Part shown: positions 6,845-13,057 of the stretch, one piece after another
How the letters are laid out: the number at the start of each line of letters is the position of its first letter
Numbering within the stretch: the stretch's first letter is position 1
Assembly: GCA_021404945.1 (NCBI GenBank)
Contig: QWHO01000149.1
Coordinates: forward strand, 8,716-22,199
Direction of reading: 5' to 3'
Length of the DNA: 13,484 nt
DNA from: a bacterium CPR1
GTDB taxonomy: Bacteria; Vulcanimicrobiota; Xenobia; Xenobiales; QWHO01
The notes under the pieces: model-generated
The model's database searches: none
Told to the model about the DNA's origin: nothing
The model's input: the letters and a program-made list of their open reading frames with translations, nothing else
Position numbers and translations under genes: made by a program

Positions 6845-6936
6845 CCCAACATGTTGGGCGTCGCGCAGCCGGAAAACTGTGTCAAGGGGGTTCCGGCCGC
6901 GCTCCTGGAGCGGTCCGGAAAACCGTGTCAAAGGGT
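6845..6936. repeat. 14-bp perfect palindrome (CCCAACATGTTGGG, 6845-6858) followed by two ~22-bp direct repeats (CCGGAAAACYGTGTCAARGGGK at 6869-6890 and 6915-6936)
   Basis: Read directly from the sequence. The direct repeats match at 19 of 22 positions, start 46 bp apart, and flank a short GC hairpin (CGCTCC-T-GGAGCG). The second copy overlaps the last codons and stop of the minus-strand methyltransferase gene. Confidence 0.45.
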
Positions 6937-7914
6937 CTCCTGATCCGATCTCGCGAAGCGGTAATGAGCCACCATGTATTCGCGACCGCCGGCGTAGCCG
7001 AAGTAGCCGGCGCAGGCCAGGAAGAAGAGCTCCCAGCGAAGGAACCACTTGCGGCTGTCTGGACCGTAGACGGGTCCGAAGATCTCCAGCACACGCGCCT
7101 TCTCGCGACGCAAATTTGCCAGCCAGGCCAGCGCGGTGCGCTGGTAGTGCCTGCCGTCCACCAGCCAGTGAGCTTCCGGAACCAGCTTTCCGCAGCATTG
7201 CAGGAAAAGGCTGGCGGAAGGGAGTGTCCCGCCGGCGAAAAAATGACGCTCCATCCAGCCCTGGCCCTCGAAAAGATAGGTCAGCGTCCGATGGCAGAAG
7301 ATGTGGATGAACAGCTTGCCCCCCGGCCGGAGCCACCTCTCCAGGCGCTGAAAGAGCAATCGGTAGTTGCGCAGGTGCTCGAACATTTCGATCGAGACGA
7401 TGCGATCGTAGCTCTGCGAAGGCTCGAATCGGTTGATATCGCAGGTCCGAGCCTCGACGTTCGGTAGTTGCAGGGAATTAATGAGCTCTCGCTGACTTTG
7501 CGAGTTCGAAACGGTCAGGATGCGGCTGGCGGGGTAGCTGCGGGCCATGAGCTCGGTGAGAGAGCCCCAGCCGCAGCCAAGCTCGAGGATGGTTTGCCCA
7601 TCCCGGAGCTCGGCCCGTTCGCAATAGAGCTCGAGCATGGCCCGCTCGGCCTCCCCCAGGTCTTGACAGCTTGAGGTCCAGTAGGCGCTGGAATACTTAC
7701 GGTGAGGCCCCAGCACGAGTTGGAAGAAGCTCGCGGGCAACTCGTAGTGCTGCCGATTGGCCTCCTCGACCTGCAAGGCCAGCGGACCCTGCGACAGCCT
7801 GTCCAGCAGAGTCAGCAAACGCTCCTGCTGGGCCTCGGGGCCGCCCCGGCGCTCGTGCCGCAGGCGCTGCCAGTTCAAAAAGCGGATCGCCTGCAAGATC
7901 AGGAAGTCTTTCAT
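6928..7914 (-). CDS. Cyclopropane-fatty-acyl-phospholipid synthase-like SAM-dependent methyltransferase (short form, 328 aa)
   Basis: CFA/mycolic-acid synthase signatures: ..EEANRQHYELPASFFQLVLGPHRKYSSAYW.. (cf. E. coli Cfa KEHYDLGNDLFSRMLDPFMQYSCAYW); SAM motif I ILELGCGWGSL; ..YDRIVSIEMFEH.. Start ATG at 7914-7912 overlaps the stop of the upstream DUF1295 gene (ATGA coupling). The ORF-track N-terminal extension to 8154 overlaps DUF1295 in another frame and reads as low complexity. Stop TGA at 6930-6928. Confidence 0.8.
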   Translation of the reverse strand: MKDFLILQAIRFLNWQRLRHERRGGPEAQQERLLTLLDRLSQGPLALQVEEANRQHYELPASFFQLVLGPHRKYSSAYWTSSCQDLGEAERAMLELYCERAELRDGQTILELGCGWGSLTELMARSYPASRILTVSNSQSQRELINSLQLPNVEARTCDINRFEPSQSYDRIVSIEMFEHLRNYRLLFQRLERWLRPGGKLFIHIFCHRTLTYLFEGQGWMERHFFAGGTLPSASLFLQCCGKLVPEAHWLVDGRHYQRTALAWLANLRREKARVLEIFGPVYGPDSRKWFLRWELFFLACAGYFGYAGGREYMVAHYRFARSDQETL

Positions 7915-12194: not shown

Positions 12195-13057
12195 CCGAGG
12201 TCGAAACCGACCGGTTGGACTACCGCGGTGCAATTCCCTATGTAATGCTGCACCTGGCTCCCCTGGCCGTCTTCCTGGTGGGCTGGACCCCGCTGGCCGT
12301 TGCGGCCTGCTTGTTTAGCTACCTGCTGCGCATGTTCGGCATCACGGCCGGCTACCACCGATATTTCTCGCACCGCTCCTATCAGACCTCGCGCGCCTTC
12401 CAGTTCGTGCTGGCTGTGCTGGGGGCCACCGCGGGGCAGAACGGCCCGCTCTGGTGGGCGGCTCACCACCGCCACCACCATCGGCATGCGGACACCGGGC
12501 AGGACCCGCACTCGCCGGGTCTGAGGGGTTTTTTCTGGTCCCACACGGTCTGGTTCTTGACCTGTCGCAGCTCTAAGACCAACCTGGAGGCCGTGCGCGA
12601 TCTGGCTCGCTATCCCGAGCTTCACCTTTTCGAGCGCCACCCTCATAAAGCCACCTGGATTTACGCTTTCTGCTGGTTCTTCCTGGGAATTTTCATCGAG
12701 ACCAGGATGCCCTTCCTGGGCACCACACGCTGGCAGCTGCTGGTGTGGGCTTACTTCGTGAGCACCATCCTGGTGTATCACGCGACTTTTAGCATCAATT
12801 CGCTGAGCCACGTCTTCGGCAGCCGGCGTTATGAGACCCGAGACAGCAGCAGGAATCACTTCTGGCTGGCCCTGATCACGCTGGGGGAGGGCTGGCACAA
12901 CAACCACCACCGCTACCCGGGCAGCGAGCGTCAGGGCTTCTTCTGGTGGGAGCTTGATCTCACCCACTATGCGCTCAAGGGGCTGGAACGGCTGGGGCTG
13001 GTGTGGGGGTTGCGCGAGCCGCCCAGGAGCCTGCTCGGTGCCGAGCGGACCGTCTGA
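12191..13057 (+). CDS. Membrane fatty-acid desaturase, Delta9 acyl-CoA/acyl-lipid type (stearoyl-CoA-desaturase family)
   Basis: ATG at 12191 overlaps the upstream TGA (ATGA coupling). Three histidine boxes: HRYFSHR, HHRHHHRH and the SCD-family signature GEGWHNNHH. Hydrophobic segments match the 4-TM topology. 288 aa. Confidence 0.85.
   Translation: MTEVETDRLDYRGAIPYVMLHLAPLAVFLVGWTPLAVAACLFSYLLRMFGITAGYHRYFSHRSYQTSRAFQFVLAVLGATAGQNGPLWWAAHHRHHHRHADTGQDPHSPGLRGFFWSHTVWFLTCRSSKTNLEAVRDLARYPELHLFERHPHKATWIYAFCWFFLGIFIETRMPFLGTTRWQLLVWAYFVSTILVYHATFSINSLSHVFGSRRYETRDSSRNHFWLALITLGEGWHNNHHRYPGSERQGFFWWELDLTHYALKGLERLGLVWGLREPPRSLLGAERTV

Follow-up and report, generated by a model that had tools for sequence, protein, structure and literature searches.

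The 13,484-nt stretch of contig QWHO01000149.1 from bacterium CPR1 (hereafter the window, G+C ~63%) contains, at 6928..13057, a real and coherent lipid-modification locus: a fused version of the known furan fatty acid cluster, which is widespread in sequence databases, though only partly characterised. The domain identities of its proteins, the fusion of two of its enzymes, the translational coupling of its genes and the repeated occurrence of the gene set in different phyla are established. By analogy with the characterised systems, we propose, at a probability of roughly 0.6, that the locus encodes a self-contained pathway that would turn acyl chains bound in phospholipids into methylated furan fatty acids. 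Furan fatty acids are scavengers of radicals and singlet oxygen, and to our knowledge their biosynthesis is known from three proteobacteria only.

In Rhodobacter sphaeroides, UfaM (RSP2144) makes 11Me-12t-18:1 and the FAD-type desaturase UfaD (RSP1091) yields the 10t,12t diene (Lemke et al. 2014, 2020). UfaO (RSP1090), a DUF1365 protein, closes the furan ring with O2, and furan formation is the only activity known for DUF1365. FufM of Rhodopseudomonas palustris (RPA0924) adds a second methyl group, converting 9M5-FuFA into 9D5-FuFA, and does not methylate 18:1. All four steps take place on phospholipid-bound chains, and the Rhodobacter genes belong to the sigmaE-ChrR regulon. A preliminary description of this DNA had named the same four roles and the same control in Rhodobacter, in agreement with the papers.

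The five genes of the locus are arranged as two operons that diverge, each with translational coupling between its genes. In the minus-strand operon, a gene for a DUF1295 integral membrane protein (7911..8675; PF06966, E 2e-62; Steroid_dh, E 6e-10) precedes one for a short methyltransferase of the CMAS family (328 aa, 6928..7914; Pfam CMAS PF02353, E 4e-40). The plus-strand operon opens with a FAD/NAD(P)-binding, amine-oxidase-like oxidoreductase, a UfaD-like candidate (9031..10233; Pfam Amino_oxidase and NAD_binding_8). It continues with a 654-aa fusion of DUF1365 to a cyclopropane fatty acid (CFA)-synthase-like enzyme (10230..12194; PF07103, E 1.7e-70, and CMAS, E 8e-80, in one open reading frame (ORF)), and ends with a membrane fatty acid desaturase of the stearoyl-CoA desaturase (SCD) type (12191..13057; FA_desaturase PF00487, E 4e-22). 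Each junction is a 4-nt overlap: ATGA at 7911-7914, where the start codon of the short methyltransferase lies on the stop codon of DUF1295; GTGA at 10230-10233, shared by the oxidase stop and the fusion start; and ATGA at 12191-12194, shared by the fusion stop and the desaturase start. The ORF of the fusion is also open from 10221, but its start is probably GTG 10230, because this start gives the GTGA overlap and is the one called in other assemblies. The TTG start of the oxidase (9031) is preceded, 10 nt upstream, by an AAGGAGG ribosome-binding site. A 408-aa ORF for the short methyltransferase was rejected as over-extended, its true start being ATG 7914.

All five proteins have exact matches in NCBI under 'bacterium CPR1' (MCE7871869-73), where they are labelled as a class I SAM-dependent methyltransferase, a DUF1295 protein, a FAD-dependent oxidoreductase, a DUF1365 family protein and an acyl-CoA desaturase. 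The closest relatives are found in Candidatus Xenobia metagenome-assembled genomes (MAGs), with 74-92% identity over the five proteins. The preliminary description had assigned these gene families to 6928..13057 and had reported two CFA-synthase-like methylases, one fused to DUF1365 and one coupled to DUF1295, with a Delta9-family desaturase in the same operon. The Pfam matches, the domain composition, the overlapping junctions and the matches of the desaturase to SCD1 bear out each of these points.

At its N-terminal end the fusion has a DUF1365 (UfaO-like) domain, encoded at ~10242..10958. The PF07103 match spans positions 1-233 of the 235 in the model, that is, a full-length UfaO-type domain, encoded beside the UfaD-like oxidase. 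Its structural model (pLDDT 88.5) shows a beta-barrel of the calycin/nitrobindin-like kind, for which ligand binding is predicted. The C-terminal part amounts to a complete CFA-synthase-like enzyme, with both the N-terminal domain and the S-adenosylmethionine (SAM)-dependent methyltransferase domain (~11043..12173; CMAS core 11361..12140). The NCBIfam models for CFA synthases span residues 275-651 of the fusion, and residues 34-373 of the E. coli enzyme (PDB 6BQC) align with the fused methyltransferase, showing that the N-terminal domain of the CFA-synthase type is present.

The fusion is real and not an assembly artefact, because it is present in four related contigs and in at least 120 other clusters. 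The four contigs are from Xenobia (L001, L002, L026 and L027), and each carries the same protein of ~660 aa. The 120 best matches listed from a 90%-clustered database are all ~650-690 aa long and contain both PF07103 and PF02353; the count of homologues is thus a lower bound. Their sources include Kiritimatiellia, Paenibacillus, Omnitrophica, Desulfosoma and Sumerlaeia. When the DUF1365 domain was used by itself in an exhaustive search, 55 of the 150 best cluster representatives were fusion-sized and 84 were of stand-alone size; most of the 55 contained the GxGWG SAM motif. In the literature searched we found no paper describing a fusion of DUF1365 to a methyltransferase in this context. The sole mention was a domain survey from 2008, which lists a DUF1365-methyltransferase architecture in Desulfococcus oleovorans.

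Does the fused methyltransferase make a methyl-olefin, as UfaM does, or a cyclopropane? If it were a true cyclopropane synthase, the locus would yield cyclopropane or cyclopropene fatty acids, with the oxidase and DUF1365 acting on or alongside them and no furan being formed. We consider this improbable, though several features speak for it. The best solved matches of the fused methyltransferase are genuine CFA synthases (6BQC from E. coli and 5Z9O, E 1e-50 against fusion residues 298-656, N-terminal domain included), and the oxidase is homologous to the N-terminal domain of plant proteins of the cyclopropane synthase (CPS) type. The bicarbonate site tells a similar story. Its residues C139, E239, H266, I268 and Y317 (E. 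coli Cfa numbering) are strictly conserved in non-plant CFA synthases, and the equivalents of C139, E239, I268 and Y317 are kept in the fused methyltransferase. At the position of H266 it has Gln (Q536), which is invariant in an alignment of 53 fusion sequences. We considered this substitution as a marker of a non-cyclopropanating enzyme and rejected it: active cotton cyclopropane synthases carry Gln too.

Three lines of evidence argue against cyclopropanation. First, the fused methyltransferase fails every curated NCBIfam equivalog cut-off for genuine CFA synthase, scoring 272.6 bits against 400 for PRK11705, 282.4 against 600 for CPFASynBruc and 186.8 against 650 for CfaB. Second, it is fused to DUF1365, the domain associated with furan formation. 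Third, cfa-like genes in comparable clusters gave a methyl-olefin and not a cyclopropane. In Rhodopseudomonas palustris the cfa-like gene clustered with ufaD and ufaO acts as UfaM. The cfa-like gene of Halomonas sp. YLGW01, consecutive with ufaD and ufaO, produced 11-methyl-octadec-12-enoate in E. coli, while a separate cfa produced cyclopropanes. In Pseudomonas syringae the best match of UfaM is a cfa gene adjoining a DUF1365 gene. The Halomonas product and the P. syringae match indicate that the cfa-like gene encoded in such clusters is normally UfaM, and the fused methyltransferase is the positional equivalent of those genes.

For the oxidase, the UfaD-like N-terminal domain of Arabidopsis AtUFAMD1 served as a proxy for UfaD, to which it is reported to be 38.5% identical. 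The two align over their full length with 33% identity (406 alignment columns). The best match of the oxidase in the PDB is the amine oxidase LkcE. The desaturase has three His boxes (HRYFSH, HRHHH and HNNHH), and its best PDB matches are SCD1 structures (4YMK/4ZYO, E 5e-33); with the NCBIfam DesA model it reaches 86 bits, the cut-off being 400. By sequence it is a member of the stearoyl-CoA (Delta9) desaturase family, a call of family only, since regiospecificity is unreadable from sequence.

The second methylase of the locus is of a different kind. The short methyltransferase lacks the CFA-synthase N-terminal domain and is only 30% identical to the fused one. Its best PDB match is coclaurine N-methyltransferase (CNMT; 6GKV, E 3.7e-60, 207 bits), which aligns end to end, compared with E 2.7e-29 and 106 bits for the E. 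coli CFA synthase 6BQC. It shares 42% identity over 330 aa with Arabidopsis LIME1/AtFUFM1, whose sequence was taken from a paper's supplement. By these comparisons it belongs to the CNMT/LIME1, FufM-like, subfamily of the CMAS family. FufM itself is 37.9% identical to LIME1, according to the paper that supplied the LIME1 sequence, and 26% identical to UfaM (Lemke et al.), and the identity figures are consistent with the short methyltransferase being FufM-like. The coupling of the genes is also alike: primer sequences in the Lemke supplement place the fufM start codon over the stop of the upstream RPA0923 (..GCTATGAGCGGG..), mirroring the start of the short methyltransferase on the stop of DUF1295. 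Since the CNMT/LIME1 subfamily is tied to FufM, a second, dimethyl-forming methylation is plausible. That the short methyltransferase adds a second methyl group in the manner of FufM is a tentative assignment, to which we give somewhat less than even odds. The FufM-type methylase of the preliminary description therefore stands as regards subfamily placement, while its dimethyl-furan product is something we infer.

A 21-mer, ATGAGCGGGCTCGCCTCGCTG, derived from the FufM primer at the gene start, matched 20 unrelated GC-rich loci (L006-L025), many of them in Chloroflexia MAGs. This suggests a conserved gene start in Chloroflexia, unrelated to the locus.

The role of the DUF1295 protein is the main unexplained part of the locus. 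It is the most conserved of the five proteins, with 55-62% identity to more than 100 clusters, and its model (pLDDT 93.7) is that of a helical membrane protein. A sequence search against solved structures gave no match, and the fold search alone was informative: the best PDB match was steroid 5-alpha-reductase 2 (SRD5A2, 7BW1; probability 1.0, TM 0.55), with ICMT second. A steroid-5-alpha-reductase-like fold is the only convincing solved match for the modelled protein. Because DUF1295 also resembles ICMT-type methyltransferases, a reductase function is uncertain. The literature searched contained no description of a DUF1295-methylase pair in this context.

These features open a different reading of the minus-strand operon, in which DUF1295 and the short methyltransferase form a methylate-then-reduce module. 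Following the logic of BfaB/BfaA, the pair would methylate an olefin and reduce it with NADPH to a saturated, mid-chain methyl-branched lipid. We regard this as a fair rival, with a small chance of being correct. The closest fold is an NADPH-dependent enzyme, and the Steroid_dh match in Pfam points the same way. The two genes are tightly coupled, with DUF1295 directly 5' of the short methyltransferase in 20 of 28 cases (this count, like that for the desaturase below, pools the window, the contigs of relatives and the scan loci). Two-step pathways of methylation and reduction are known for 10-methyl fatty acids, and methylation of a furan needs no reductase. Against this, FufM is the sole characterised member linked to the short methyltransferase subfamily, and its substrate is 9M5-FuFA and not 18:1. 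The likeness of DUF1295 to ICMT-type enzymes also weakens the case for a reductase, and the pair joins the UfaD/UfaO core far above chance, in 10 of the 21 loci with long flanks described next.

To see how the gene set is distributed, we searched metagenome contigs using the alignment of fusion sequences and assigned the neighbouring genes by tblastn. The scan gave 72 loci with a core of DUF1365 and a long methyltransferase, most of them unfused. In the 21 with long flanks, the oxidase was always present (21/21), usually just 5' of DUF1365. A homologous desaturase was found in 8 of these loci, DUF1295 in 13, the short methyltransferase in 13 and the full set in 4. In the pooled sources, the desaturase adjoins the core in 22 of 25 occurrences. 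Of the four related Xenobia contigs, L002, L026 and L027 share the divergent layout of the window; L001 instead has its DUF1295-methylase pair 7 kb upstream and on the same strand. A Kiritimatiellia contig carries the genes as one co-directional operon (desaturase, DUF1295, short methyltransferase, oxidase, fusion) with a 4-nt overlap at each junction, and Paenibacillus psychroresistens has the short methyltransferase, the oxidase and the fusion.

Cultured organisms carry unfused versions. In the methanotroph Methylicorpusculum oleiharenae the order is desaturase, oxidase, DUF1365, CFA synthase, DUF2878, DUF1295 and short methyltransferase, and its proteins are 35-52% identical to those of the window. 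Ralstonia wenshanensis p56D2 (L112, 3003..19005) has MerR, FolE, oxidase, DUF1365, CFA synthase, DUF1295, short CFA synthase and DUF2878, together with lipocalins, a chalcone-isomerase-like gene and three photolyase/cryptochrome genes. On pRL12 of Rhizobium johnstonii 3841 (L111, 3478..13215) the DUF1295-short methyltransferase pair overlaps by 4 nt and adjoins an oxidoreductase gene.

The gene set is therefore a recurrent module across phyla, fused or unfused, with varied gene order. The preliminary description did not recognise this architecture as one described before, but it is not unusual: the set is present in cultured genomes, complete in some long-flank loci and with its pair in about half of them, and the fusion is common. 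In the literature searched, no paper analysed this gene-set architecture. The recurrence also speaks against the idea that the genes are mere neighbours, serving desaturation, cyclopropanation and an unrelated methylation independently. Each family alone is common in bacteria and accessory content differs between loci, but overlaps at all junctions, two physically fused enzymes and a set kept through rearrangements across several phyla make this very unlikely.

Taken as a furan fatty acid pathway, the locus would operate as follows. The SCD-type desaturase would use O2 to place a cis double bond in a saturated chain, providing the olefin substrate; the host may not make cis-vaccenate. The CFA-synthase-like half of the fusion would then methylate the olefin as UfaM does, and the FAD oxidoreductase, acting like UfaD, would add a second double bond to give a conjugated methyl-diene. 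The DUF1365 half, like UfaO, would close the furan ring with O2. Finally, the short methyltransferase of the divergent operon may methylate the furan again to give a dimethyl furan fatty acid. We speculate that the product could deviate from 9M5 and 9D5 in its chain positions, because the olefin may be Delta9 and not Delta11. In its most extended form, this proposal holds that the conserved set of six domains (desaturase, UfaD-like, fused UfaO- and UfaM-like, DUF1295 and FufM-like proteins) is a complete route from saturated chain to dimethyl furan fatty acid outside Proteobacteria. DUF1295 would have a hitherto unrecognised catalytic or scaffolding part in it, and substrate would be channelled from the fused methylase to a UfaO barrel that is nitrobindin-like and possibly haem-binding. 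We hold this full version to be rather unlikely.

The intergenic region between the operons (8676..9030), read from the sequence as the presumed location of both promoters, gave little indication of regulation. In this 354-nt divergent spacer we found no sigma-70-like or other consensus promoter, no Rfam match and no convincing small ORF. About 200 nt of it (within 8677..8925) have no equivalent in the closest relatives, where the spacer measures 10-136 nt; a stretch of ~35 nt (GGAGGCCARGCTCCTGCAGACGTTGAA-like, 8886..8925) is common to the spacer of the window and L026.

Two relatives do have an extracytoplasmic function (ECF) sigma gene nearby: in L001 (region 2853..8587) it directly precedes the oxidase gene, and in L026 (region 15003..16380) its distance to the short methylase is 4 kb. 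The two sigma genes are 89% identical to each other. The unannotated protein beside them (267-289 aa) has no Pfam match and no recognisable ChrR domain. In L001, MerR, ferritin-like, SDR and NmrA/DUF2867 genes lie between the two operons.

Across bacteria, cluster neighbourhoods often include photolyases, MerR and ChrR-sigma genes. In the two cultured proteobacteria L111 and L112, the DUF1295-short methyltransferase pair lies near a ChrR-sigma pair, TspO, lipocalin, FolE, SDR, MerR and photolyases/cryptochromes; in R. johnstonii the annotated ChrR-sigma pair is 3.5 kb away. These neighbourhoods suggest a light or singlet-oxygen regulon that takes in these uncharacterised genes. In Chlamydomonas, singlet oxygen induces CFA1 and the CNMT-like CFA2 together with one DUF1365 gene and one DUF1295 gene. 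Given this induction and the neighbourhoods with photolyase, MerR and ChrR-sigma genes, a role for the locus in photo-oxidative stress is plausible by analogy.

Several points weigh against a furan fatty acid pathway. Regulation of the Rhodobacter type is not apparent: the ECF11 motif TGATCC-N16-CGTA, a consensus taken from literature on the sigmaE-ChrR regulon, has no match with up to one mismatch in the whole window, and there is no rpoE-chrR pair from the upstream end of the window to ~5 kb downstream of the desaturase. Both the sigma/ChrR pair and the promoter motif that the preliminary description had proposed to look for are absent from the window; in those ~5 kb we read genes for MacAB-type efflux and for a PilZ protein, but none for a sigma factor. 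In R. sphaeroides, the cfa-like RSP1089 beside ufaO is dispensable for furan fatty acids and UfaM is encoded elsewhere. The published pathway has no step for DUF1295, and FufM alone suffices to make 9D5-FuFA both in vivo and in vitro. The type of product is unreadable from the sequence of the fused methyltransferase, because its H266 to Gln change is shared with plant fusions of an FAD oxidase to CPS that make cyclopropanes. Orthology to UfaM, UfaD, UfaO and FufM rests on synteny, domain architecture and plant proxies. Finally, substrates, order of steps, regiochemistry and product are all inferred for a locus that is known here from its genes.

The window holds other genes as well. Near its start, the plus-strand ORFs 308..1033 and 855..2720 overlap but are in different frames. 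The second matches the major-vault-protein (MVP) shoulder, SPFH and Vault_3, and the first resembles vault-type repeats by eye. Together, the two (308..2720) probably represent a single MVP-like bacterial gene that a frameshift or assembly error near 940-1000 has broken in two. Upstream of the locus are a peptidase S51 (cyanophycinase-like) gene at 3786..4913 on the minus strand and an Amidohydro_3 gene at ~5028..6647 on the plus strand. For the latter, a mechanically called ORF of 733 aa was rejected as over-extended, other assemblies having 539 aa. On the 3' side of the desaturase (13125..13484 of the window, plus strand, and 6272..10914 of L109) are genes for a MacA-like adaptor, a MacB/FtsX permease, an ABC ATPase and a PilZ-domain protein.

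In this uncultured lineage the pathway genes are condensed into a minimal unit held together by translational coupling. With its own desaturase and a natural UfaO-UfaM fusion, it would be convenient for heterologous production. The locus also contains two recurring partners beyond the published pathway, DUF1295 and the desaturase. Testing the fusion and the DUF1295-methylase pair would fill a real but modest gap.

Among the closest known systems, the core of the locus resembles the ufaD-ufaO-ufaM operon of R. palustris (RPA2571-2569), which has the same three families in the same order (oxidase, DUF1365, methylase). The same families make up UfaD/UfaO (RSP1091/1090) and UfaM (RSP2144) in R. 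sphaeroides. A gene-by-gene equation with the R. sphaeroides operon, in which RSP1087 would be DUF1295, was rejected: according to the literature, RSP1087 is a short-chain dehydrogenase/reductase (SDR) and RSP1088 is lipoprotein-like. The locus departs from these two systems in joining DUF1365 and the methylase in a single polypeptide, in having an SCD-type desaturase gene within the operon and in lacking the sigmaE-ChrR pair and motif. The hosts also differ: Candidatus Xenobia (Eremiobacterota/Vulcanimicrobiota) here, Proteobacteria there. Like the short methyltransferase, FufM and LIME1 are short CMAS-family enzymes without the CFA-synthase N-terminal domain; the upstream partner in our locus is DUF1295.

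The clusters of M. oleiharenae and R. wenshanensis p56D2 contain the same families, including the DUF1295-short methyltransferase pair and, in Methylicorpusculum, also the desaturase. Their DUF1365 and CFA synthase are separate genes, unlike the fusion described here, and the DUF2878, lipocalin, chalcone-isomerase-like and SnoaL genes of the unfused clusters, with their nearby photolyases, are not represented in the window. Plant cyclopropane synthases and AtUFAMD1 likewise combine a UfaD-like oxidase with a CFA-synthase-like methyltransferase that has the same H266 to Gln change. The fusion partners differ, however: the methyltransferase is joined to the oxidase in plants and to DUF1365 here, and the products of the enzymes from Sterculia and cotton are cyclopropanes. 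BfaA/BfaB and TmpA/TmpB, which produce 10-methyl fatty acids, also pair a CFA-synthase-like methylase with a redox enzyme acting on phospholipid olefins. In those pathways the flavoproteins belong to other families, DUF1365 is absent and the product is a saturated methyl branch.

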